A DNA stretch of 64,000 nt from Candidatus Poseidoniales archaeon (GTDB lineage Archaea > Thermoplasmatota > Poseidoniia > Poseidoniales > Poseidoniaceae), in contig QQSK01000013.1 of NCBI GenBank assembly GCA_003602415.1, forward strand, positions 89,929-153,928, given 5' to 3'. The notes below the pieces were generated by a model that did not search any database, was not told the origin of the DNA, and saw only the letters and a list, made by a program, of their open reading frames with translations. Position numbers and translations under genes: made by a program. Of the stretch, positions 49,048-63,013 are shown piece by piece; the stretch's first letter is position 1, and every line of letters begins with the position of its first letter.

Positions 49048-49845
49048 ATGAATCTTGATTGGGAAGACATACATTGGAAAGACCCAGATGGTGGCACAAT
49101 TGTGCTGCATGGGATTCTTCCAACAGTAGTTCTGCCTAATGGCATGAGGCCCAGATTTAATTGGCATGGTTTAGGCATAATGGGCTCGAGTGAAGAGATT
49201 GAAGTTTGGACTGAAGAGGAAAAGGCAGAATTGAAAGATTCTGGAATAAATCTCGATAGTGCAATCCTGAATGGAGGGCTAGACAGTCTGTATTTGGAAA
49301 TGCTCACTTGGGTCGAAGGATTACAAGTGGGAAGATTCCCAGACCCAGAACCGCGCAGATTGCATAAGGCAGCAGTCAATCATGACCGTCCAGTTTTCTT
49401 TGCAGAACCGGATATGGATGATGAATCCTGGGCAACCTATCTCGAGAAAGAAGCGAAAGCAATGACTCGTCCTCGTAAATTATTGAAAATGATATTTGTT
49501 TCAAGACGTTGGAGAAAGTGCATCAAGAAAATGCGTAAGCACGTAATCGAACAACCGGTCCGAGAGCCAGATGGATTACAAGCAGCTAGTGCTCTTGCAG
49601 CCACCTGGTGGACTCTAAACAGAGAAAACTCGGAACAGGATTTGAATGAGGAAAAAGACTTGAGATTCGCAGGACGCCTAAGAGGAGGATTGGCGAAATT
49701 GAGAGAGGATTTCAAAGATGATGCATTACTCTTAGTGCCAATACAACAGGCTGGTAGAAAATCTATGCTAGCCGCATTAGAAAAACTTCCAGAACCAGAG
49801 GAGAGTTCTTCACTTGCCTCCTCCTCGGATGGAGAGGAGGAGTGA
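49048..49845 (+). CDS. Hypothetical protein
   Basis: 265-codon ORF, operon-packed. Confidence 0.7.
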   Translation: MNLDWEDIHWKDPDGGTIVLHGILPTVVLPNGMRPRFNWHGLGIMGSSEEIEVWTEEEKAELKDSGINLDSAILNGGLDSLYLEMLTWVEGLQVGRFPDPEPRRLHKAAVNHDRPVFFAEPDMDDESWATYLEKEAKAMTRPRKLLKMIFVSRRWRKCIKKMRKHVIEQPVREPDGLQAASALAATWWTLNRENSEQDLNEEKDLRFAGRLRGGLAKLREDFKDDALLLVPIQQAGRKSMLAALEKLPEPEESSSLASSSDGEEE

Positions 49846-50387
49846 TTATGAGCGGTTCAAATAAAATCGATGTTCGTGTCGATAACCTTCTGGTGAGATT
49901 CACCCCAACACCTGCTGTAGACCTTGAAGAAGCGGTTGAGAGACTTGGTGGAGTAGTCAATGGCGACGTCATTATCAAGATGTTAGATGCTCCTAGAGCG
50001 ACTTTGATTATCGATGCTGAAGGTCGAATTATTGTCCATGGAACACATCGTATCGAAGCAGCCAGAGCAGCAGCAAAGGAAATGCTACTGCGAATGGGAA
50101 GAGATGATTCAGGACTGGTTACCGAATTAGGACCAATCGTAGCCTCATTTGATTTTGGCGAAACTGTACCAATTCACAATATTCGTTCAAATTTAGGAAG
50201 CGGCACTTCCTCTGTTGATGAAAGACTTGGCTGCCTTAGAATAGAAGACTCTCGACATGATCTGGAATTATTGATTTGGCCAAATGGTCGCTGTGTAGCT
50301 CTGAATGCTCGACACCCTAACATGGTGGCAATGTCTGCAGTTCATTGGAAGTCGAAATTCGCTGATAAGAAATCTCTCAAGGCGTGA
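49842..50387 (+). CDS. Degenerate TATA-binding-protein-like protein
   Basis: 181 aa, two repeats: PRATLIIDAEGRIIVHG / HDLELLIWPNGRCVALN, plus VDNLLVRF / GPIVASF. Confidence 0.6.
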   Translation: MIMSGSNKIDVRVDNLLVRFTPTPAVDLEEAVERLGGVVNGDVIIKMLDAPRATLIIDAEGRIIVHGTHRIEAARAAAKEMLLRMGRDDSGLVTELGPIVASFDFGETVPIHNIRSNLGSGTSSVDERLGCLRIEDSRHDLELLIWPNGRCVALNARHPNMVAMSAVHWKSKFADKKSLKA

Positions 50388-51235: not shown

Positions 51236-51291
51236 ACCAGCCCCCCAAAGAGTTCATGACCTTGGATATATTCGCACGGTTTGGTGGAAAC

Positions 51292-52422
51292 ATGAAGAGA
51301 GTGTTACTTATCTCAATCCTCATGTTATGTTTGCTTGTTCCTATGAATGCACAAGCACAATTTCCTCCGATCGGTGTAGAAGTCGAATGTGACCAGTCTA
51401 CCATCAATATCAATGTACACCCTGAACAGAATGAGCCGGTCTCAGTTTCTTGCACGGTCAAGAATACAGGTTCAGTTTCTCAAAATATCGATATTGAGAG
51501 TGAATTAGATGGTAACGATTTCTCTCTGGTTCTATCTGAAGACACATTTGAGCAAGTAGAGGCAGGTGGTGAAGAACCCTTCATCGCAACGTTTTCTGCA
51601 TCACCAAGAATCGAGGTCTTGTCTGAAGATTTTACAATTACTGCAAGAATTACCAGTTGGGGTACTGAGCCAATAATGATTCCTTGGGGTCAATTCAATT
51701 CGACCTCAGAGGTTGGAGGAACAGTCAACTCTTTGCCATATTCTAGAATGGATTTGGAAGTCTCAAACCCTTCTACAAGGAACATCGAAGTTTCTGAAGA
51801 AGCAACCATTCAATTCACGATTTTCAATGATGGAAATCGAATAGACAATCTTGAGGTCGTGATTGTAAATCAGCAAGAAATTGAAGATGCTGGTTTCAAA
51901 TTCGTTTCAGACCCGTTCTTCCGTGCTACTGTGAATCCAGGAGCATCTTCTGACCAAGGCAATATTATTCTTGAAGCACCTAGTGATGCTTCCAGTGAGA
52001 TTTCAATACAGGTCGAACTTCTAGCATATTCTAAACTTGATACCAATGCTGAAGCCAGTGAAGTTTCAATTCGTGTAGTGGTTGCAGCATCTAGCGGAGG
52101 CGGGGGCTCAATCGGCCTTGATGACTTTGAAACACTTGATGGAGACAGTATGGCAATGATTGGAATGGCCGCTGGTGGCCTATTCGGTGTCATCATCCTA
52201 TTGGTCATCATCTCAAGGCTGACCAAGAAAGCAGGTAAGCAGAAAATTGCTGCAAAGGAAGCAAAGAAAGCGGCTAAGGCTGAGCGCAAAGCGGGACGTG
52301 CTTCAAAGAAAGCCGATGTTGCAGAAGAAGAATTCGATGATGATTTCGACGATGATTTGGATTTAGGAGATCTCGACGACCTTGACGACCTCGATGACGA
52401 CTTCGATTTCGACGACCTTTGA
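51292..52422 (+). CDS. Membrane-anchored secreted Ig-like protein with an acidic tail
   Basis: Signal peptide, NxGN repeats, TM segment, Lys/Ala stretch then Asp-rich C-terminus. Confidence 0.78.
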   Translation: MKRVLLISILMLCLLVPMNAQAQFPPIGVEVECDQSTININVHPEQNEPVSVSCTVKNTGSVSQNIDIESELDGNDFSLVLSEDTFEQVEAGGEEPFIATFSASPRIEVLSEDFTITARITSWGTEPIMIPWGQFNSTSEVGGTVNSLPYSRMDLEVSNPSTRNIEVSEEATIQFTIFNDGNRIDNLEVVIVNQQEIEDAGFKFVSDPFFRATVNPGASSDQGNIILEAPSDASSEISIQVELLAYSKLDTNAEASEVSIRVVVAASSGGGGSIGLDDFETLDGDSMAMIGMAAGGLFGVIILLVIISRLTKKAGKQKIAAKEAKKAAKAERKAGRASKKADVAEEEFDDDFDDDLDLGDLDDLDDLDDDFDFDDL

Positions 52423-52520: not shown

Positions 52521-52541
52521 CACCTACCCTAAGGGTAGGTG
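52521..52541. promoter_or_regulatory. Perfect hairpin overlapping the fabI SD
   Basis: CACCTACCC TAA GGGTAGGTG; ATG at 52548. Confidence 0.55.
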
Positions 52542-52547
52542 CTAATC

Positions 52548-53342
52548 ATGCTTGGTTTACAAGGTAAAGTTGCATTCGTTTTTGGCGTGGCCAGTGAAGA
52601 CTCAATTGCATGGGCTATTTGCAAAAGTTTAGCCGATGCAGGAGTCACTCTGTATCTGGGATATCAGAAGAGATTCATGTCTCGTGTATTCCAATTGAAA
52701 GACAAACTGCCAGCCATTGCGGGATTCTATCCATTGGATGTTGCAAACGATGCGGACACCAAAGAATTCTTCGATGCATTCGGCAAAGAGAATCCCGGCA
52801 TGAAAGCTGACATCTTGATTCATGCTATCGGTTTTGCACCACGAGAATGTTTTGATAGGCCGATATTATTCGTTGATGATGAAAGTATCAATACTGCATA
52901 CACAATTTCTGCAAACTCATTGCAACGTTGCCTAAAATTCGCATTACCTTATCTAAATCCTGGCTCATCAACAATCACTCTAACCTATGCGGCTTCTACA
53001 AGGCACGTCCCTTCCTATGGAATCATGAGTATGGCAAAAGCAGCACTAGAATGCTGGACTAGAGAATTAGCTTGTCATCTTGGGCCTGAAGGACACCGAG
53101 TCAATGCGATATCTAGTGGGCCGATTAGAACGATTGCTGCTAGCGGTATTCCTGGGTTTGACAACATCCTTGACCATGTTGCTGCCAATTCGCCACTGCG
53201 TCGAAATGTTACACAAACAGATGTTGCAGGATGCACAACATGGTTGGCAAGCCCTCTGTCATCTGGTGTGACTGGACAATGTATACACGTCGATGCTGGA
53301 TATTCGATCACTATGGTTCCTCCAAGCATTATGGGTGAGTGA
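52548..53342 (+). CDS. fabI: Enoyl-ACP reductase
   Basis: GVASEDSIAWAI, HAIGFAP, Y-GIMSMA-K (Yx6K), RVNAISSGPIRT. Confidence 0.92.
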   Translation: MLGLQGKVAFVFGVASEDSIAWAICKSLADAGVTLYLGYQKRFMSRVFQLKDKLPAIAGFYPLDVANDADTKEFFDAFGKENPGMKADILIHAIGFAPRECFDRPILFVDDESINTAYTISANSLQRCLKFALPYLNPGSSTITLTYAASTRHVPSYGIMSMAKAALECWTRELACHLGPEGHRVNAISSGPIRTIAASGIPGFDNILDHVAANSPLRRNVTQTDVAGCTTWLASPLSSGVTGQCIHVDAGYSITMVPPSIMGE

Positions 53343-53346
53343 AAAA

Positions 53347-56300
53347 ATGACAATCACTACGACAAACGGTAAGCAAGTCGATGGCCTAAATCAGGCTCCT
53401 TTCGAGCCTGTTGCGGTTATTGGAATGGCTGCATTGATGCCAGATGCCACTTCAATGGAAGAGTTTTGGCAGAATATTATCGATGCGCATGTCTCTATCA
53501 AAGAGGTATCCAAAGATAGATGGGACCCAGATATCTATTGGGAGAATGGGGCTCCAGGCAACGTTACCGAAGGCAAGACATATTCTAAAATCGGAGGATT
53601 CGTAGAAGACTATGAGTTCGATTGGCGAAGGTGGAGGCAACCTCCAGGTACTCTTCCACAAATCGACCCATGTCAACTTTGGGCGGTAACCGTATCAGCA
53701 GATGCAATCGATGATGCAGGATACGGAGAAGGTGGGAAAACACTGGACAGAGCAAGGACTGGAGTCATTTTCGCTAATGCTTTAGGGGGGGAAAATCGCT
53801 CAGAATCAAACATCAGAATTTTTAGTTCTGAAATGAGGAAGATTGCTCTAGATAACGGAGCAACTCCAGAACAAGCAGATGCGATGGTAGAGAAAATGTG
53901 CGAGGGCAAACCTCGTATCGATGAAGATACAATGCCAGGAGAATTGGCTAATGTAGTCAGTGGGAGAGTTGCAAATCTTCTAGATCTGCAAGGTCCAAAT
54001 TATTCCACAGATGCGGCTTGTGCTTCGTCTATGGCTGCACTTCTAGACGCATGTAGACTTCTACAAACACGCCAGGTAGACACAATGCTAGCAGGTGCAA
54101 CAGACCGTTGCATGGAAGCTCCGACCTACGCTAAGTTTAGCGCAATCGGCGCACTTTCTCCAAGCCACTCTACTCCTTTCGATGCCCGTGCTAATGGATT
54201 CGTTATGGGTGAAGGAGCAGGTGTTCTTCTTCTCAAGAGATTGTCTGATGCAATCGATGCCGGTGACGACATCAAAGCAGTAATTCGCGGAGTAGGTGGT
54301 TCTTCGGATGGTAGAGGGAAAGGGATAACCGCTCCTAGTCAAAGAGGGCAAGTCCAAGCGGTAAGTCGAGCATATTCACAAGCGGGTTACGAGCCTTCAA
54401 CAGTAGAGTTAGTCGAAGCGCATGGTACTTCAACCAAGGTTGGTGATGCAACGGAATTGTCGACATTGTCTCTATTGTGGACAGGCTTGGATGGGGGAGA
54501 CCACATCGCAGTGGGTTCAGTCAAGAGTCAAATTGGGCATCTGAAAGCGGCTGCAGGAATTGCTGGAATCATGAAAGCATGTAATTCAGTATATCACAAG
54601 ACAATACCTCCTAGTGCAGGGTTCCAAACTCCAAACCCAACGGTTGAATGGGACGAGATACCATTTTTCGTACCAACAGAAGCTAGAGACTGGCCAGAGC
54701 CAGAATCTCACCCACGTAGGGCAGGAATCTCAGCATTCGGCTTCGGTGGAACAAATTTCCACGTAGCAGTTGAGGGCTATGACCTCGAATATCACTCCAA
54801 ATTAGTAGAACACTGGAATGGGAGATGGGAAGCATATGCAGGAATCGAATCTTCTTCATCTGAAGCCAAACCAACTATGACGCACGAGGAGTTGAAGGCT
54901 GTTGAAGGCGGATTACTACTATTGTCTGGTGACTCGATAGATTCTCTCAAGTCAAAATTGAGTGCACTTACATTCTCTGGTCCAAACTTTGACGATGATC
55001 CACGAGGCATGCGTCTATCATTTACTCTAGACTCTCACTGGTCTTTCGATGTTAAAGACACAGTCAGAATGGCTTTGTCAGCCACCAGTTGGGCTGAGTT
55101 TAACAAACGTAAGGACTTGGCAATCAAGGCTATGGATGACAAGGAGAAATGGGGCTTTTTGATGAGTCAAGGCATCATGATTAGCGATACTCCTGCACTG
55201 CCTAAACAAGCAAAAGTCGCACACATGTATCCTGGTCAAGGAAGCCAATATGTTGGTATGACCAACGACTTACATTCTCGTTTCAGTGGCGTAGGCGATG
55301 TTTGGGACAAGGCTGATGTTACCATGGTCGATGTTTTGGATGGAGAGACATTGTCTTCTTTCGTACTTCGTGATGGATTAACCGCTGAAGAAATGAAAGA
55401 GGCTGAGCACAAACTCAAGCAGACTGAATATACTCAACCCGCAATGTTGACAGCAGATTTAGCAATTGAAGCGGCACTGAATGCTCACGGACATAAGCCA
55501 GATATGGTGGCTGGGCACAGTTTAGGAGAATATGCAGCACTAATGAGTGCAGGTATTCTTGACATGGATGGTGCATTGAGAGCGGCAGCAGCTCGTGGTA
55601 CTGAAATGGGTAGTGTCGAAATTGATGACAAAGGCTTGATGGCTAGTGTAACCGCACCTTACGATAGAATCGCAGAGATTATCGAAGAAGTGGACGGTTA
55701 TGTCATTGCAGCAAATAAAAACTCACCGAAGATGACGGTAATCGCTGGAGAAACCGAACCCGTAAAGCAAGCAATGTCACGCTTTGAGGCTGAAGGTTTC
55801 CAGTGTGTTGCATTAGCAACAAGCCACGCATTCCATTCTCGAATCGTTGCACCTGCAAACGAACCACTTCGCAGATTCTTAGAAGGGCTGGACATTAGAT
55901 GGCCAAAAATCCCGATCACCAGCAACGTTGACGGCGGGTGGTATCCAATGGATGATGGCGGCGATTCAAAGGCAGCAATACTATCCAAACTTGCACCTCA
56001 AATGGCATCAAGTGTTGAATGGACTTCGCAGATAAATTCGATGTATGATGCAGGAGCACGATTATTCCTAGAAGTAGGACCTAAGCGTGCACTCACAGTA
56101 TTCGCATCACAAATCCTTGAAGGCAAACAAGCCCTTCCAATAATGACAAATCACCCTAAGGCCGGAGGAATTGCAACGTTCCTTACCGCTTTAGGAACGC
56201 TAGCTCTTGCTGGAAGAGTTCCCGAATGGCCTGGCCCTAACAGCGCTCACTTAACTCCAGCATTCCGTGCAGGACCTATCGAGGCAGCAGGCGGAGCCAA

Positions 56301-59300
56301 GCAGCCTGCAACTCCTCTGAAGGAGAGAAGCAGGCCATTGCCATCAAAGGGTGGCCAAACAGTTACTCAAACCGTCATCCAATCGAGTGAAACATACGTT
56401 GATCCCGATGCAGCAAAGAAGGCATTAGTGGGCGAGTTAATCGCTGCACAGACTGGATATCCTGCAAAATTCTGTCAAGGTAATGTCGACATGAGAGCGG
56501 TTCTTGGTATGAGCGATGAGCAAATCCAAGTCGTAGTATCTTCAGTTCATGCAAGGTGTAGTACTGACCCCGATTGGGACATTACGATAGCAAAAACTCC
56601 TGGAGATATCACTAGATGGATAACTTCAGCACCAGCAATTGGCTCCAAGTCCAAGTCGATGAAACACGATGATAGAGATGACGACCCGTTCGTAATCACG
56701 GGTATTTCAATGGGCCTTCCTGGTGGAGAAAGAGTGTTTGATGAAGGTAATTTCGAGAAATTGGTGAGGGGTGAAACTTGTATCACCGAAGTGACCGACG
56801 AATACAAACAACGCCTTCTAGACAAAAATATCGTACGTCTAATAAAAGGAAGAGACGGCAGTGTCGGAATGGATGCTGCTACTGAATTTGGAGATATACC
56901 TCAATTAGCTGGAGTGAAATCCGCTTTCGATCCTACAGAAGAGTTCGGAATCGATGCCAAAGTCGCAGCAGCTTGGGATATTGCAACTCAGTTATCTTGT
57001 GCGGCTGGATTAATCGCATTGAAAGATGCAGGTATTCCATTAACTCCTGTGGAACAGGTTGGTAAAGGTGGATTGAGATTGATTCGTTCTTGGCAAATGC
57101 CATCCGCTTACAGAGATAGAACTGGAATAGTATTCGCATCTTGCTTCGCAGGCCATCAAATGGCTGCAAGGCATGCTAAGGTCAATGGAGACGATGGTGA
57201 GGGAAGATTCGACAGAAGATATCTTTTCCAAATATTGAATATGGGCCATTCACAATTCGCTCAGCATGTTGGAATTAGAGGTCCGAATACCACAATTAAC
57301 CTAGCATGTGCTTCTGCAACTGCAGCATTCGGCGTCGCAGAAGATTGGCTTGCCAACGATAGATGTGACCGTGTAGTCATAATCTCTGCAGATGATGTAA
57401 CGGGAGACGACCTATGGGAATGGATTGGTTCAGGTTTCGCTGCCAGCGGAGCTGCAGCAACCAATAACTCGGTTGAAGAAACCGCATTACCTTTCGACAA
57501 GAGGCGCAATGGTTTGATTCTGGGAATGGGTGCAGCAGCATTCGTAGTCGAACGAAAATCAGAATCCGACGCTAGAGGAGTTCAGCCGATGGCTGAGTTA
57601 TTGGGAACTAGAATTGCAAATTCCGCATTCCATGGAACTCGATTGGACGTTGAGCATGTCGCTAGTACCGTTGATGATTTCGTTTCTGAAATGGAAGAAA
57701 GATGGGGATTAGACAGACACCAAATGGCTCCTGATACCGTGTTCTTTTCCCATGAAACATATACTCCTGCTCGTGGAGGTTCAGCTCAGGCTGAAGTCAA
57801 GGCCCTCAGAGACACATTTGGTGCTAGTACGGATTCAATAGTCATTGCAAACACCAAAGGTTTCACAGGACATCCAATGGGTGTAGGAATTGAAGATGCT
57901 GCCATGTTCTATGGTTTAATGACCGGCAGAATACCGCCAATCGCCAATCACAAAGAAACAGATCCAGAACTTGGAAATCTGAAATTATCCAAGGGGGGAG
58001 ATTATTCCAATCTGAAGTATGGAATGAGATTTGCAGCAGGGTTTGGAAGTCAAATCGGTTTGTCATTAGTTCGAAAGTGTGAATTCACAGGAGATAGAAT
58101 CAACAAACAAAAACTGCTGACCTGGAACCAATCTCAGGCAGGAACTACCAATTTAGAATTAAGAGTATTACAAAACAAACTGGTTGCATATGTTGATGCA
58201 GACAACAATTTACACGGCGGAATTCTAGGAGATGAATACGCAGTACCACGAGAAATAGATAGCATCGAGGCTCCAGTAATCGAATCTAGTCCTGCTCCAA
58301 AACCAGAACCTGTGGCTCCAGCACCTGCTGAACCAACTCCTGTTGCGTCGGCGCCTTCAGGTGATACGACTTCTATCGTAATCGAAGTCGTAGTCAAGCA
58401 CACAGGATATCCTGCTGACTTTGTAGAGTTAGACCAAGACCTAGAAGGTCAACTTGGAATAGATACTGTCAAGCAAGCAGAAATAATGGCAGATATCAGA
58501 GAAAAATTCGGTTTACCTATCGATGAAGACTTCGTACTTTCAGATTATCCAACACTGAATCATATGATCGCCTACATCCACAAGATGCAGGGAGGAAGTC
58601 CTGCTCCTGTTGCACCAAAAACAGTAACTGAAGTTTCAACTCCAGAACCAGTTCCAAAAGCAGAACCAGCACCTGCGCCAGCACCAGTTGCTAGCGAGCA
58701 ATCTTCAGCAGTAGATATTCAGCCGAAATTAATCGGAGTAGTGGTCAAGCACACAGGCTATCCCGAAGATTTCATCGAAATGGACCAAGACCTTGAAGGA
58801 GAATTGGGAATCGATACGGTCAAGCAAGCCGAAATCATGGGTGATGTAAGAGAAATTTTCTCATTACCTATCGATGAAGACTTCGTTCTATCCGAGCACC
58901 CTACTCTGAACCACTTCGTAGCCTACATTCAGAAGATGACAGGCGGAAACGCTCCAGTGCCTACTCCAGCACCGGTCGAGACGACAAGTCCAGCCGCTCC
59001 AACGCCTGTTGAAGTTCCAGCAACTCCAACGGTTTCAGCAGATAGCGGAGACATTCAGCCGAAATTAATCGGTGTAGTGGTCAAGCATACAGGCTATCCT
59101 GAAGATTTCATCGAAATGGACCAAGACCTAGAAGGAGAATTAGGAATTGATACGGTTAAACAAGCCGAAATCATGGGTGACGTAAGAGAAATTTTCTCAT
59201 TACCAGTGGATGAAGACTTCGTTCTATCCGATCACCCTACTCTGAATCACTTCGTAGCCTATATTCAGAGAATGACAGGCGGAAGCACTCCGGCATCTAC

Positions 59301-62300
59301 TCCAGCACCAGCGCCGGTTGAAGTGAAAAGTCCAGTTGCTCCAACACCTGTTGAAGCTCCAACAACTCCAACGGTTTCAGCAGATAGCGGAGAAATACAA
59401 GTGAAATTAATCGGTGTAGTGGTCAAGCATACAGGCTACCCAGACGACTTCATTGAAATGGACCAAGACCTAGAAGGCGAACTAGGAATCGATACGGTCA
59501 AGCAAGCCGAAATCATGGGTGACGTAAGAGAAATTTTCTCATTACCAGTGGATGAAGACTTCGTTCTATCCGACCACCCTACTCTGAACCACTTCGTAGC
59601 CTACATTCAGAAGATGAAAGGAGGAGGTGCACCAGCGCCAGCGCCAGTTGCGAAACCAGTTCCACAACCAGTTGCACCTCAGCCAGTGCCTTCAACACCT
59701 GTTAGCAATTCCAAGCCAATAGCCGAATCTACCACAAGACGATGGCAGGTAGAGGTCGAACCATGCCCTGCAGTAGCCGAAGGTCTTCCAATTGGAGGAA
59801 CAATCGTGCTAACACAGGATAGCTGGGGCGTAGCAGATGCTTTGGCAGATAGGCTAGTCGAAAAGGGCCTATCTGTAGCGAAGATTGGATTCGAATTCGG
59901 TGCTAAATCAGTTACTGAACAAGAGGAGTTGTCGGGTCATACCTTCAGAGCAGACCCAGGTAGTGAAGAGCAAATCGCCGAGGTTTGCTCTAGAATTTCA
60001 GGTGTTGCTGGAATCATCCACTTAGCACCACTTTCCCTAACCGGAAGTTCTTGGGAAGCCGATGGTCCATCAAATCAGGTGAATCTTGCAGCACAATCTT
60101 GGTTTGGATTACTGAAAGGCTTAGATTCACAATTAGGAGTAATCTCCTCAGGCATTGTTGGTAGTGTAACCGCTTTGGATGGAAGACATGGAAATAGGGG
60201 CGAGCGATTCAATTCACTTGCTTGCGCAGCAAGTGGAGTGACCAAGTCCTATGCCTTTGAGAGGGAAAACCTCAGATGTCGTGCACTTGATTTACACCCT
60301 GAATTGATTATTGATGCAGCATCAGCAGCAGAAGTAATCGACAACGATTTATTCACCGCAGGCGGAGAAATCGAAATAGGAATCGACAGAGATGGCCGAA
60401 GATGGACGATGGTCTGTTTCGCAGAAGATGTCGTTGAAGATGTTGAACCATTACAATCCGATGATTTGTGGTTGGTCAGTGGTGGTGGCTCTGGAGTAAC
60501 AGCAGCATCAATAATCGGTGTATCAAGCGCTAGTAACGGCGCTGGTGCGACATTCCTACTACTTGGTAGAAGCAAACTCGTTGAAGAAACATCGGGATGG
60601 TTGGATTGGAGCGATGACCAACTCAATCAGAGGAAGATGGAACTTAGAGAATCATTGATCGCCGAATCTGAATCTGGAAAAGTGACAATGGTGGAATGGA
60701 ATAATGCTTGGACTAAATTAACTCGAAGTATGGATATTTATCGAACGATAAGCGATATCGAAGCAAGTGGAAACAATGCAGAGTACCACTCAGCAGATGT
60801 TACCGATTCTGAAGCGATTAAGTCCGCAGTCAATGGAAGAGATGTAACCGGTATCGTTCACGGTGCAGGTCTTGAAGAATCTAAACTGGTAGCAGACAAA
60901 GCATGGAACACATTCGACTTGATTGTTAGAGTCAAGGTCGATGGATGGAAAGCATTAGCCTCTGCTGCAGGAGATTCTCTACGGTTTGCCTGTGCGTTCA
61001 CAAGCGTAGCGGGTAGATTTGGAAATCGTGGTCAAACAGATTATGCAGCGGCCAACTCAATTTTGGACGCAGAAATGGCTCGCATGACAGCTAACTCTGA
61101 ATGCAGAGCGGTTGCTATTGGATGGACAGGATGGAGAGATGTTGGAATGGCAACTCGCGGCTCGATAGAAGCGGTGTTTGAGTCATCTGGAATTGAGACA
61201 TTGTCTGTTGAAGATGGTGTCGAGATATTCGTCAAAGAAGCATTAGCAGGCGGCAAAAGAAGAGTTCTAGGCTGCGGCTCATTAGGAAATATGGACCTAT
61301 TCGATTCATTTAGAGAAGCGCCTTTGAAATTACCTGCAGAAATGGCTGCATCGATTGCAGACCCTCGCAGATTCCCTCTTATCGACAAACTCTTGTCTAT
61401 TGAGGAAGGCGAATCCTTAGTATCTCAGTGTACTCTTTCAATGCAAGAACATCCATTCTTGGTAGATCATGCAATCGATGGAGTTCCTTACCACCCAGGC
61501 GTAATGGCGTTGGAGATGTTTGCAGAAAACTCTCTACTGCTGATGCCAAGTCATTGTTTAGCAGGTTTCGAAGAAGTCACATTTGGTTTACCTGTCAAGA
61601 TAATGAAAGGCGATATGACTGTTAGAGTTGAAGCAACATTATCCAGAACCGATGGTGACTTGTCTTGGGTAAAATGCCGCTTAGTTTCAGATTTGACTAA
61701 TTCAAAGGGTGAAGTATTCGGTGAACCAAGATTACATCACGAAGCGATGGTACGACTGGTTGCAACATCAGATGACCTTCGCCCATTCTTACAAAATGAA
61801 GTTGACTCCTTACCAGCAATAGGAACTCCACCTCATGGTGATTTACTACATCACTCTAGTTTCATCTATCTGAGATATTTCCACGGCCCAAGGTTCCAAT
61901 CTCATGGCGGAGTTCTACGTGGCGTTGAAAACGGCGTAGACGGTATTGCACTGATGCGCCACCAACTGCCTGCAACCGACCAATTTGCATTGGAAAGCGA
62001 TGGTGAAGAAGTTCTGTTGGATGCTCTACCAATGCTAATCGAAGCAGGTTTCCAAAATGCTGGATTGGCAGCCATGGAAAGCGATGGATTCTCGAGTCTA
62101 CCTATTGGAATCGAGTGGACTACAATGTTGCGAGTTCCCGATGCAAACGAATCTTTGCGAATGCGTTCAGTCAAAGTTGCTACCGAGGATGCGGGAATAA
62201 CTGTACACGATGTGGTAATCGTTGGAGAAGATGATGCTCCTGTTCTATCGCTCAAGGGTCTACGACTCAAAGCGATGGGCCAAGTGCCTGAAGATCAGAG

Positions 62301-62319
62301 ATTCAGTCTTGAGAGGTGA
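53347..62319 (+). CDS. Type I PKS / PfaA-like fatty acid synthase: KS-AT-(ACP-like)-KS-ACPx4-KR-DH
   Basis: KS1 DAACASS/EAHGT/GHL; AT GHSLG, HAFHS; KS2 NLACAS/SHET/GHP; 4x LGIDTVKQAEI; KR GGGSGVT, YAAAN; DH HAIDGVPYHP. Confidence 0.93.
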   Translation: MTITTTNGKQVDGLNQAPFEPVAVIGMAALMPDATSMEEFWQNIIDAHVSIKEVSKDRWDPDIYWENGAPGNVTEGKTYSKIGGFVEDYEFDWRRWRQPPGTLPQIDPCQLWAVTVSADAIDDAGYGEGGKTLDRARTGVIFANALGGENRSESNIRIFSSEMRKIALDNGATPEQADAMVEKMCEGKPRIDEDTMPGELANVVSGRVANLLDLQGPNYSTDAACASSMAALLDACRLLQTRQVDTMLAGATDRCMEAPTYAKFSAIGALSPSHSTPFDARANGFVMGEGAGVLLLKRLSDAIDAGDDIKAVIRGVGGSSDGRGKGITAPSQRGQVQAVSRAYSQAGYEPSTVELVEAHGTSTKVGDATELSTLSLLWTGLDGGDHIAVGSVKSQIGHLKAAAGIAGIMKACNSVYHKTIPPSAGFQTPNPTVEWDEIPFFVPTEARDWPEPESHPRRAGISAFGFGGTNFHVAVEGYDLEYHSKLVEHWNGRWEAYAGIESSSSEAKPTMTHEELKAVEGGLLLLSGDSIDSLKSKLSALTFSGPNFDDDPRGMRLSFTLDSHWSFDVKDTVRMALSATSWAEFNKRKDLAIKAMDDKEKWGFLMSQGIMISDTPALPKQAKVAHMYPGQGSQYVGMTNDLHSRFSGVGDVWDKADVTMVDVLDGETLSSFVLRDGLTAEEMKEAEHKLKQTEYTQPAMLTADLAIEAALNAHGHKPDMVAGHSLGEYAALMSAGILDMDGALRAAAARGTEMGSVEIDDKGLMASVTAPYDRIAEIIEEVDGYVIAANKNSPKMTVIAGETEPVKQAMSRFEAEGFQCVALATSHAFHSRIVAPANEPLRRFLEGLDIRWPKIPITSNVDGGWYPMDDGGDSKAAILSKLAPQMASSVEWTSQINSMYDAGARLFLEVGPKRALTVFASQILEGKQALPIMTNHPKAGGIATFLTALGTLALAGRVPEWPGPNSAHLTPAFRAGPIEAAGGAKQPATPLKERSRPLPSKGGQTVTQTVIQSSETYVDPDAAKKALVGELIAAQTGYPAKFCQGNVDMRAVLGMSDEQIQVVVSSVHARCSTDPDWDITIAKTPGDITRWITSAPAIGSKSKSMKHDDRDDDPFVITGISMGLPGGERVFDEGNFEKLVRGETCITEVTDEYKQRLLDKNIVRLIKGRDGSVGMDAATEFGDIPQLAGVKSAFDPTEEFGIDAKVAAAWDIATQLSCAAGLIALKDAGIPLTPVEQVGKGGLRLIRSWQMPSAYRDRTGIVFASCFAGHQMAARHAKVNGDDGEGRFDRRYLFQILNMGHSQFAQHVGIRGPNTTINLACASATAAFGVAEDWLANDRCDRVVIISADDVTGDDLWEWIGSGFAASGAAATNNSVEETALPFDKRRNGLILGMGAAAFVVERKSESDARGVQPMAELLGTRIANSAFHGTRLDVEHVASTVDDFVSEMEERWGLDRHQMAPDTVFFSHETYTPARGGSAQAEVKALRDTFGASTDSIVIANTKGFTGHPMGVGIEDAAMFYGLMTGRIPPIANHKETDPELGNLKLSKGGDYSNLKYGMRFAAGFGSQIGLSLVRKCEFTGDRINKQKLLTWNQSQAGTTNLELRVLQNKLVAYVDADNNLHGGILGDEYAVPREIDSIEAPVIESSPAPKPEPVAPAPAEPTPVASAPSGDTTSIVIEVVVKHTGYPADFVELDQDLEGQLGIDTVKQAEIMADIREKFGLPIDEDFVLSDYPTLNHMIAYIHKMQGGSPAPVAPKTVTEVSTPEPVPKAEPAPAPAPVASEQSSAVDIQPKLIGVVVKHTGYPEDFIEMDQDLEGELGIDTVKQAEIMGDVREIFSLPIDEDFVLSEHPTLNHFVAYIQKMTGGNAPVPTPAPVETTSPAAPTPVEVPATPTVSADSGDIQPKLIGVVVKHTGYPEDFIEMDQDLEGELGIDTVKQAEIMGDVREIFSLPVDEDFVLSDHPTLNHFVAYIQRMTGGSTPASTPAPAPVEVKSPVAPTPVEAPTTPTVSADSGEIQVKLIGVVVKHTGYPDDFIEMDQDLEGELGIDTVKQAEIMGDVREIFSLPVDEDFVLSDHPTLNHFVAYIQKMKGGGAPAPAPVAKPVPQPVAPQPVPSTPVSNSKPIAESTTRRWQVEVEPCPAVAEGLPIGGTIVLTQDSWGVADALADRLVEKGLSVAKIGFEFGAKSVTEQEELSGHTFRADPGSEEQIAEVCSRISGVAGIIHLAPLSLTGSSWEADGPSNQVNLAAQSWFGLLKGLDSQLGVISSGIVGSVTALDGRHGNRGERFNSLACAASGVTKSYAFERENLRCRALDLHPELIIDAASAAEVIDNDLFTAGGEIEIGIDRDGRRWTMVCFAEDVVEDVEPLQSDDLWLVSGGGSGVTAASIIGVSSASNGAGATFLLLGRSKLVEETSGWLDWSDDQLNQRKMELRESLIAESESGKVTMVEWNNAWTKLTRSMDIYRTISDIEASGNNAEYHSADVTDSEAIKSAVNGRDVTGIVHGAGLEESKLVADKAWNTFDLIVRVKVDGWKALASAAGDSLRFACAFTSVAGRFGNRGQTDYAAANSILDAEMARMTANSECRAVAIGWTGWRDVGMATRGSIEAVFESSGIETLSVEDGVEIFVKEALAGGKRRVLGCGSLGNMDLFDSFREAPLKLPAEMAASIADPRRFPLIDKLLSIEEGESLVSQCTLSMQEHPFLVDHAIDGVPYHPGVMALEMFAENSLLLMPSHCLAGFEEVTFGLPVKIMKGDMTVRVEATLSRTDGDLSWVKCRLVSDLTNSKGEVFGEPRLHHEAMVRLVATSDDLRPFLQNEVDSLPAIGTPPHGDLLHHSSFIYLRYFHGPRFQSHGGVLRGVENGVDGIALMRHQLPATDQFALESDGEEVLLDALPMLIEAGFQNAGLAAMESDGFSSLPIGIEWTTMLRVPDANESLRMRSVKVATEDAGITVHDVVIVGEDDAPVLSLKGLRLKAMGQVPEDQRFSLER
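58370..59620 (+). repeat. Four tandem intragenic ACP repeats (about 340 bp period)
   Basis: Near-identical repeats; Thr codons at 58465, 58816, 59152 and 59494, separated by Pro/Ala/Thr linkers. Confidence 0.9.
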
Positions 62320-62323
62320 TTTT

Positions 62324-63013
62324 GTGGAGTTAATGGATCCTCCATCGGGTCCACGAATGCTAATTGCTAGAATGCCGATTTCCGATTGTCGAAGTGTACT
62401 AGCTGAAGACATTCCTCGTGCGACAGCCAAACGTCTTGCAGACCATAATTCGGGCCGCCTATTATTGGAGAAATGTTTGGAGCACTGGGAATTGCCTATC
62501 GGCTCGCTAGAAGTTCTACGAACCCAACATCGAGCACCTTACCTGTCTTGGTTAAACGGGGTTTGGAGAAATGAACCATTGCCGGGAATTAGCATTGGAC
62601 ATTCAGGAGATTGGGCGGTTTGTGCTCTCATCGAACCTGGGTACTGGATAGGTATTGATGCAGAGCCAAAAGATAGGGGGATTCAGACCAATGCATTCGA
62701 CATGATGGCCAAAGGTAAAGAGTTAGATTTTCTAATTGAAAATTCAAAAATAGCAATTGAAACATGGACCGCAAAAGAGGCGGTTCAAAAGGCCGAAAAA
62801 CTAGGAATGCACCTAAACCCAAGAGACATCAATTTGACCGAATATAATGTTGAATCTTTCATTCATGATGACCTGATGGTTTCAGTCTCATGGAGGGAGG
62901 CAGGAGATGCTCCAAGGTCTGCTGAAGACGACCTCTTGGATGCTACTTTAGAAGCAATGAAAGATAATCCTAACTTTTCGGTTGGATGTAAAACAACCAG
63001 AAATAATGTTTGA
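62324..63013 (+). CDS. Sfp-type 4'-phosphopantetheinyl transferase
   Basis: ISIGHSG, IGIDAE, WTAKEAVQKA; GAGGTGA SD overlapping the PKS stop. Confidence 0.88.
   Translation: MELMDPPSGPRMLIARMPISDCRSVLAEDIPRATAKRLADHNSGRLLLEKCLEHWELPIGSLEVLRTQHRAPYLSWLNGVWRNEPLPGISIGHSGDWAVCALIEPGYWIGIDAEPKDRGIQTNAFDMMAKGKELDFLIENSKIAIETWTAKEAVQKAEKLGMHLNPRDINLTEYNVESFIHDDLMVSVSWREAGDAPRSAEDDLLDATLEAMKDNPNFSVGCKTTRNNV

Follow-up and report, generated by a model that had tools for sequence, protein, structure and literature searches.

To our knowledge, the serine that carries the 4'-phosphopantetheine (Ppant) arm is treated as invariant in carrier biology, and annotation by the GxDS motif depends on it. Among described systems, the polyunsaturated fatty acid (PUFA) synthase protein PfaA (TIGR02813) resembles the locus analyzed here most closely, with an N-terminal ketosynthase-acyltransferase (KS-AT) pair, tandem acyl carrier protein (ACP) domains, a ketoreductase (KR) and a polyketide synthase (PKS)-type dehydratase (DH). 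The same domains occur in a type I megasynthase encoded in a 64,000-nucleotide stretch, hereafter the window, of the genome of a Candidatus Poseidoniales archaeon (assembly GCA_003602415.1, contig QQSK01000013.1, positions 89,929 to 153,928). Unlike PfaA, this synthase has threonine at the attachment column of all four of its carriers. From the distribution of this residue, the linkage of a phosphopantetheinyl transferase (PPTase) gene to the synthase and a predicted complex of the two, we consider it probable that the threonine is a true Ppant attachment site, loaded by the neighboring PPTase.

Four tandem carriers with threonine at the attachment site

The synthase (P0001) is encoded on the forward strand by an open reading frame (ORF) at 53293-62319, 3008 aa as the ORF is listed. 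Its closest homologs are labeled Candidatus Poseidoniaceae or Poseidoniales, which belong to Marine Group II (MGII). PF00550 matches four stretches of the protein (aa about 1690-2113) with 101 bits against a cut-off of 20.8. These stretches correspond to ACP1 (58363-58602), ACP2 (58708-58962), ACP3 (59044-59289) and ACP4 (59386-59631), all on the forward strand.

At the attachment column, where PF00550 has serine (GxDS), threonine is present in all four window carriers. LGIDTVKQAEI can be read four times in both the translation and the DNA, with a GAT (Asp) codon before every threonine codon. The threonine is encoded by ACT in ACP1 (Thr1725, 58465-58467) and by ACG in ACP2 (Thr1842, 58816-58818), ACP3 (Thr1954, 59152-59154) and ACP4 (Thr2068, 59494-59496). 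In phmmer alignments with Protein Data Bank chains, the window threonine aligns to the attachment serine of the PigH ACPs (GVDS, GIDS), of an AcpP-type ACP (GADS) and of AcpM (DIDS). A sequence-only reading of this DNA had reported threonine in every carrier, encoded by two codons and hence not a single sequencing error, and had seen no GxDS carrier elsewhere in the protein. All of this holds; the G.DS strings at residues 889 and 2276 fall in the AT and KR regions.

ACP2 to ACP4 form a tandem array at 58723-59625, with a 342-bp unit, 2.7 copies and 89% match, and ACP1 is more diverged. The four window threonines are therefore partly copies rather than four independent events, and homologs provide the real test.

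A sequencing or assembly error was considered and rejected. It is ruled out by the two threonine codons found here, together with the occurrence of all four ACN codons in the 192 homologous carriers described below. It is also contradicted by DNA contigs of related strains (runs X2 and X3), since no change in the threonine codons is among the changes listed. Among those listed, the differences nearest to these codons, 58461 A>C and 58473 G>A, were read as synonymous; another 105 differences lie beyond that list. A run labeled as a metatranscriptome (X1) contributed eight contigs (86-604 nt) whose matching parts of 70-241 nt, with 0-6 differences, fall within 59374-61909. As DNA can occur in metatranscriptome libraries, we make no claim from them about transcription of the synthase.

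Threonine carriers as a family trait

A first homolog search, seeded with words from the carrier region, returned D-T-VKQ proteins only (120 of 120). Because a carrier-seeded result is possibly circular, the survey was repeated with AT-motif seeds and with an exhaustive HMMER search. The blind survey was seeded with the AT motifs …GQGSQ and GHS[LV]GEY and covered 80 loci from named GTDB genomes plus the window, and carriers were read with a hidden Markov model (HMM) built from the ACPs of the family. The 81 sources comprised 35 with threonine in all carriers (34 and the window), 34 with serine in all carriers, one mixed source and 11 in which no carrier was read, these being truncated contigs or distant PKSs. 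Threonine thus occupies the attachment column in 35 of the 70 carrier-bearing sources. The threonine carriers (LG[IV]DTVKQAE) score 85-135 bits on the family HMM, versus 17-66 bits for the serine carriers, which are mostly of the PfaA type (LGIDSIKRVE). All-threonine loci span about ten phyla in total and come from Poseidoniales, another Thermoplasmata archaeon, Acidobacteriota, Chloroflexota, Actinomycetota, Elusimicrobiota, Myxococcota, Rhodothermota, Binatota and Proteobacteria.

The exhaustive HMMER search, with ACP2 as query and clusters at 50% identity, matched 4190 cluster representatives at E<=1e-3, of which 2263 pass 1e-10 and 444 pass 1e-30, the last set including Ser-type tandem carriers. 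The best 150 clusters divide into 91 all-threonine, 54 all-serine and five with threonine and an additional weak pseudo-carrier match. At the codon level, 192 threonine carriers (a count of carriers read rather than of independent genes, some genomes being represented by two loci) use ACA 24, ACT 23, ACG 74 and ACC 71 times. Outside two reverting lineages, none of these 192 positions in the Thr clade is serine. Serine carriers in the KQ[AV][ED] context use TCN, which is one transversion away from ACN.

Each synthase has three to seven tandem carriers, and their helix-II face is strictly conserved across the roughly ten phyla. The carrier consensus contains no other conserved serine, either in the alignment of window homologs or in 29 T-type and 12 S-type carriers from Poseidoniales. 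The sequence-only reading had suggested looking for a conserved DTVKQ in homologs, with a prevalence of DS counting against its proposal. Within the KS clade described below, threonine is the dominant state and homologs are not mostly DS.

The top 150 HMMER clusters also contain a family with DSIKKAQ carriers (P0143, P0181, P0229 and others), whose members have about 3000 aa, tandem LGIDSIKKAQ repeats and a KS-KS-AT N terminus. At about 80 bits, these carriers are nearer to the threonine family than PfaA carriers are. We considered them as close serine relatives and discarded this assignment, given their KS-KS-AT architecture and their position outside the KS clade.

Phylogeny and switches back to serine

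A tree of KS1 domains (96 rows; IQ-TREE quick search, SH-aLRT support only, midpoint root) places every T row inside one Thr-architecture clade with an SH-aLRT of 99. This clade holds 41 T rows, six MGIIb S rows, two rows from the one mixed locus and four unread rows. The all-serine PfaA-like clade is its neighbor, and the Poseidoniales clade has a support of 100. FastTree with added representatives gave the same picture. We know of no other carrier proteins without serine at the attachment site, which makes a single Ser-to-Thr change at the root of the clade the most parsimonious history. Under this history, the Thr (DT) state would be ancestral to a large synthase clade of archaea and bacteria.

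A PF00550 scan of 151 Poseidoniales genomes (metagenome-assembled genomes, MAGs, with completeness of 81-98%) identified six genomes from three MGIIb genera (G009, G015, G061, G083, G129 and G141) whose orthologous synthase has LGIDSIKQAE carriers that still reach about 100 bits on the DT-family HMM. Their rows share a subclade (SH-aLRT 95) with T-type MGIIb genomes, within a T-type order. This nesting indicates that serine is derived there. In a comparison of the 29 T and 12 S carriers of Poseidoniales, five columns switch without exception (D/E, Q/A, L/M, T/S and V/I), from …YPxDFxELDQDLEGELGIDTVKQAE to …YPxEFxELDADMEGELGIDSIKQAE. The T-V and S-I pairs have the same summed side-chain carbon count, and the exchange looks compensatory.

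Serine also occurs in Candidatus Heimdallarchaeum aukensis (L011), where the carriers of a single protein read S, T and S. Furthermore, P0207 carries LGIDSVKVAE in the same KS-AT-KS architecture, and its KS1 is 72% identical to that of archaeal locus L031. Threonine is not obligatory for the family, given the serine found at this site in some MGIIb genera and in a second archaeal lineage. The presence of serine and threonine at one site in orthologs, and within one tandem array, provides the strongest comparative argument that threonine does the job of serine.

The Heimdallarchaeum locus (L011, 7847-23092) has two consecutive KS-AT-bearing ORFs, the second fused to a PPTase domain. A near-identical free copy of this PPTase lies about 2 kb downstream, with end branches of 0.008 and 0.05 in the tree. 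Separately, two Poseidoniales contigs, L083 (G140:C217) and L084 (G144:C24), contain PP-binding matches outside the synthase family. L083 encodes a standard serine carrier (FEMGLDSLSAIEL) on a 2.7-kb contig, which may represent another PKS-like gene or an error of binning.

A PPTase linked to the synthase

An Sfp-type PPTase gene (PF01648) lies directly downstream of the synthase on the same strand (62324-63013, within ORF 62222-63013). Its likely start is GTG 62324 or ATG 62333, 5-14 nt past the synthase stop. The intact adjacent PPTase reported by the sequence-only reading is borne out by a PF01648 score of 25.3 bits against a cut-off of 25 and by retention of the Mg/CoA and catalytic residues. 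H127, D146, E148, W182, K185, E186 and K190 are all present, are invariant in 18 aligned relatives, and are kept in all 35 T-linked enzymes. A profile of 18 T-linked PPTases retrieves Sfp-type enzymes of solved structure at E-values of 2.4e-15 to 1e-10, with Sfp and human AASDHPPT ranking best.

Jackhmmer searches from the window PPTase identified a homolog in 29 of the 35 T-type sources, either adjacent, nearby or fused. Where 9 kb or more of downstream sequence is available, a homolog is always present (26 of 26 T-type loci). Of the six sources that lack it, L025, L026, L029 and L046 are cut inside the synthase, while the flank of L016 and L019 extends for no more than 2.7-5.9 kb. L012 (Myxococcota), L013 (Thermoplasmata), L011 and P0119 have the PPTase as a C-terminal fusion to the synthase.

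The window genome (1.89 Mb, 89% complete) has one PP-binding locus and one PF01648 locus, and these are the synthase and PPTase described here. Across the 151 Poseidoniales genomes, the PPTase query matches 101 and PF00550 matches 96, and the genera concerned are identical (16 of 22). Both are found in 94 genomes, the PPTase only in seven, carriers only in two and neither in 48. One of the two "carriers only" genomes, G009, has a divergent PPTase next to its synthase.

In MGIIb, the PPTase lies immediately 3' of the synthase in T-type and S-type genomes alike. On the T-linked PPTase HMM, the S-type MGIIb enzymes score 39-73 bits versus 95-123 bits for the T-type ones, and two of the S-type enzymes have lost K185. 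The PPTase beside Ser-reverted MGIIb synthases diverges faster.

The PPTases of MGIIa (window aa ~235-263, 62924-63013; L003-L006) also share a conserved C-terminal tail (…EDxLLxxT…W/FxVGCxTxRxN), which is absent from their MGIIb and bacterial relatives.

PPTase specificity and a predicted complex

The sequence-only reading had suggested a search for PPTase residues that co-vary with the threonine. Three comparisons gave K70, G130 and D160 as candidates, plus Q189 within Poseidoniales, and none holds across all lineages. The best of them, K70, is lysine in 31 of 35 T-linked enzymes and in none of 17 S-linked ones, where the S set consists of two clades and several rows are gapped. In the PPTase tree, whose long branches are not reliable, T-linked and S-linked enzymes cluster without reciprocal monophyly.

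Bacterial genomes carrying a DT locus have one to three PF01648 matches each. In the elusimicrobiotal genome G153 (L015), the sole PF01648 match is the DT-linked enzyme, and a canonical AcpP with DLGADSLD is encoded as well (L130). If this MAG is complete for PPTases, its enzyme must load both serine and threonine, which hints at a dual specificity.

We also predicted a complex of PPTase residues 40-263 and ACP1 residues 1688-1772 in the presence of CoA and Mg. It had a median ipSAE of 0.90, compared with 0.09 for the best of three controls; the calibration counts for this mark, 58 of 80 solved complexes and two of 110 mismatched pairs, are only a rough guide here given the custom alignments and ligands. 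The partner pLDDT was at least 88, and contacts agreed between runs to at least 98%. In the model, D1724, T1725 and V1726 of the carrier face H127, residue 128, E148, W182 and E186 of the PPTase, and PPTase residues 70-71 and 154-162 face the carrier loop and helix II. Since similar complexes have been solved (Sfp-PCP, where PCP is peptidyl carrier protein, 4mrt; AASDHPPT, 2cg5), the docking pass may come from this likeness. The prediction therefore shows only that canonical docking would be compatible with threonine.

Weighing the explanations

We favor a mechanism in which the four domains would be working acyl carriers of a PfaA-like, iterative type I fatty-acid or polyketide synthase, with FabI acting in trans. 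The Ppant arm would sit on the threonine hydroxyl in place of the canonical serine, with CoA as donor and the Sfp-type PPTase encoded 5-14 nt downstream as the transferring enzyme. In a few archaeal lineages, threonine would have switched back to serine, together with neighboring carrier residues and a faster-evolving PPTase. Any gain from threonine might lie in insulation from other PPTases or hydrolases, or in a phosphodiester less prone to beta-elimination.

A different proposal is that the carriers are never pantetheinylated and serve as structural or docking pseudo-carriers, with intermediates bound to CoA or otherwise held non-covalently. It echoes the ACP-independent fatty-acid synthesis that has been proposed in archaea, and we consider it quite improbable. 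Threonine is indeed a non-canonical acceptor, the corresponding Ser-to-Thr change in a plant ACP is described as non-functional in a background passage of PMC9310384, and the same synthase already holds one clearly degenerate ACP-like segment. However, pseudo-carriers would hardly be kept in three to seven tandem copies with strict helix-II conservation in about ten phyla, nor would they explain why almost all complete loci have a catalytically intact PPTase, either linked or fused. In the window genome, this PPTase would be left without any other substrate, and serine-bearing orthologs retain the same architecture and the same PPTase neighbor. This is the non-covalent or CoA-based option offered by the sequence-only reading, and the Thr-dominant clade, with which an adjacent or fused PPTase travels, also counts against it. 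We give almost no credence to the use of another residue, prosthetic group or donor, such as non-Ppant transfer from CoA onto threonine. The weak PF01648 match of the PPTase (25.3 bits) would fit such chemistry, but the T-linked profile finds Sfp and AASDHPPT (E about 1e-15), the Mg/CoA motif residues are conserved, and the carriers offer no other conserved serine.

Alternatively, an ordinary, promiscuous Sfp-type PPTase may modify the threonine, with DT being a frozen, near-neutral variant and no specialized code. S and T alternate between members of one order and, in L011, inside a single protein (S, T, S), which speaks for this, as do G153, with its canonical DS AcpP and only a DT-linked PF01648 match, and the lack of a universal PPTase specificity residue. 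We nevertheless regard it as rather unlikely. Serine is one base away and is absent from the 192 Thr-clade carriers outside the two reverting lineages, and the T/S switch brings four other fixed carrier changes and lower PPTase scores (39-73 versus 95-123 bits). Such co-switching is not what neutrality predicts. The sequence-only reading had suggested that such carriers form a class phosphopantetheinylated on threonine and served by a dedicated PPTase. The carrier class is supported by the Thr-dominant clade (41 T, six S, two mixed and four unread rows) and the adjacent or fused PPTase, whereas dedication of the enzyme is not established, in view of G153.

Several observations weigh against attachment to threonine by the neighboring PPTase. 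The window PPTase passes PF01648 only marginally. Three comparisons found no residue that cleanly splits T-linked from S-linked PPTases in all lineages, and the PPTase tree has no single clean T-linked clade (four changes are required, in a quick search whose inner branches are weak). All trees come from quick or FastTree searches and are midpoint-rooted. The S-type MGIIb carriers trace back to one or two events, which leaves few independent observations behind the co-variation of the five columns. Finally, the background passage in PMC9310384 states that spinach ACP-I lost function upon Ser38-to-Thr substitution, and on that account a standard PPTase/ACP pair does not tolerate threonine.

As a more far-reaching and tentative possibility, an ancient clade of type I fatty-acid-like synthases spanning many phyla may use Thr-Ppant as its native linkage. 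The co-varying carrier face and PPTase would then mark a private recognition code, which would shield the pathway from other PPTases and from ACP hydrolases or give a chemically hardier phosphodiester. If so, the synthase of MGII archaea, in which other carriers are lacking, would make bacterial-type fatty acids for the suspected mixed membranes.

Significance and prior literature

If threonine is the attachment site, the conserved Thr clade would be the first natural exception to serine attachment. Its carriers would be mis-scored as inactive in rule-based genome mining. The orthologous Ser and Thr synthase-PPTase pairs within one archaeal order make specificity directly testable, and a Thr carrier with its PPTase may yield an orthogonal enzyme/tag pair for protein labeling. 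The locus also bears on the lipid divide, as the only carrier-dependent synthase found in the window genome.

No paper on a natural threonine Ppant site was found in the literature searched, outside which most subscription journals lie, and a natural Thr-type carrier with its PPTase is probably undescribed. The only related statement is the background passage on spinach ACP-I in PMC9310384. The phrase "serine to threonine" in PMC12232313 concerns the substrate of an adenylation domain and has no bearing on the carrier site. Neither 10.1101/2025.10.24.684404 nor PMC8049014 has a passage relevant to threonine carriers. The terms "polyketide" and "acyl carrier" are both absent from the main text of PMC6461757 and from that of PMC6962369, although the supplements of these papers might mention the gene.

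Synthase architecture and neighboring genes

The probable start of the synthase is ATG 53347 (M19), a column that is invariant in 14 aligned homologs. The domain order is KS1-AT-pseudoACP-KS2-ACPx4-KR-DH, with all domains on the forward strand. KS1 (53404-54780, aa 38-496; PF00109/PF02801/PF16197) has invariant C243, H377 and H416. KS2 (56680-58092, aa ~1130-1600; a second PF00109 stretch and PF08545) has invariant C1339, H1487 and H1527. Both thus retain the Cys-His-His set in the alignment with 14 homologs. The AT domain (55225-56214, aa 645-974) matches PF00698 with 122.7 bits and contains the GHSLGEY motif. The KR region (60160-61152) has a Pfam stretch at aa 2484-2616 (PF08659, 78.8 bits), and the PKS-type DH (61375-62289, aa 2695-2999) matches PF21089 and PF14765.

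Between AT and KS2 lies a degenerate ACP-like segment (56410-56640, aa ~1040-1115) with a weak ACP-HMM match at aa 1052-1080. It reads LGMSDEQ and has no conserved hydroxyl at the attachment column. The segment is degenerate in bacterial homologs too, which have ERLAIDY/F at the same spot. It is probably a structural or docking pseudo-carrier.

Upstream on the same strand, a FabI-like enoyl reductase (ER) gene (52539-53342; PF13561, 226.7 bits against a cut-off of 27) has its stop ending 5 nt ahead of the probable synthase start. It stays under the NCBIfam equivalog cut-offs, with NF005615 as the best model (216.4 versus 391 bits). Its product is likely the trans-acting ER of the synthase.

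Further genes lie upstream of the fabI-synthase-PPTase unit, all on the forward strand. A "choice-of-anchor T" family protein is encoded at 51256-52422 (NF041740, 97 bits) and a TBP-like protein at 49842-50387 (PF00352, 28 bits). A 1947-aa ORF at 43198-49041 matches neither Pfam nor NCBIfam models at E<=1e-3.

Comparison with known systems

PfaA (TIGR02813) is the best-scoring named family for the synthase, at 974.2 bits and below the cut-off of 1010.1. Beyond the shared domain set, the likeness extends to a cluster-encoded Sfp-type PPTase (PfaE-like), often fused in relatives, and to the position of the PfaA-like proteins as sister group in the KS tree. In the window synthase, unlike PfaA, AT is separated from the carriers by a pseudo-ACP and another complete KS (C-H-H), and the carriers read DTVKQAE instead of DSIKRVE, with 85-135 versus 17-66 bits on the family HMM. 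No PfaB/C/D-like genes lie beside it; its neighbors are FabI upstream and the PPTase downstream.

The ER partner also sets this family apart from PfaA, being FabI in MGII and, in bacteria, acyl-CoA dehydrogenase (ACAD), EtfAB and an Fe-S protein; many bacterial loci add acetyl-CoA carboxylase. In L020 (4254-27486), Pfam identifies a 575-aa ACAD directly upstream of the synthase, preceded by EtfB, EtfA and an HdrD-like Fe-S protein; the downstream genes encode a eukaryote-like multidomain acetyl-CoA carboxylase of 1891 aa and then the PPTase. L022 has an ACAD-like gene directly upstream, a carboxyltransferase gene lies downstream in L022 and L015, and L049 and L044 have ORFs that resemble those of L020 in size and position only. 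Gene content suggests an ACAD/Etf-type enoyl reduction step in the bacterial Thr-type neighborhoods. An ER acting in trans would be FabI in MGII and possibly an NMO-type domain in P0119, which has a weak N-terminal match to an NMO-type (PfaD-like) reductase (21.9 bits against a cut-off of 28). As a whole, the system looks like a self-contained, iterative fatty-acid-like synthase, which for MGII would be in keeping with remarks in the literature.

With canonical ACPs and PCPs (PF00550; AcpP, AcpM, PigH), the window carriers share the profile match, a helix II in register and the Asp before the attachment residue. They differ in the threonine at the attachment column, four times over, and in the next residue, which is valine where Ser-type relatives have isoleucine. 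The Ser38-to-Thr variant of spinach ACP-I has the same substitution at the same site, but it is an engineered type II ACP for which the passage in PMC9310384 gives loss of function, whereas threonine is the natural, conserved state of a whole synthase family here. Sfp-type PPTases (1qr0/4mrt, 2cg5, EntD, PptT, PfaE) and the T-linked enzymes have SxSH, GxDxE and WxxKE(A/S)xxK in common. The T-linked enzymes differ from Sfp in their presumed acceptor, threonine, and in having K-R where, in our reading of the alignment, Sfp has E-D, with the lysine placed in the predicted carrier interface.

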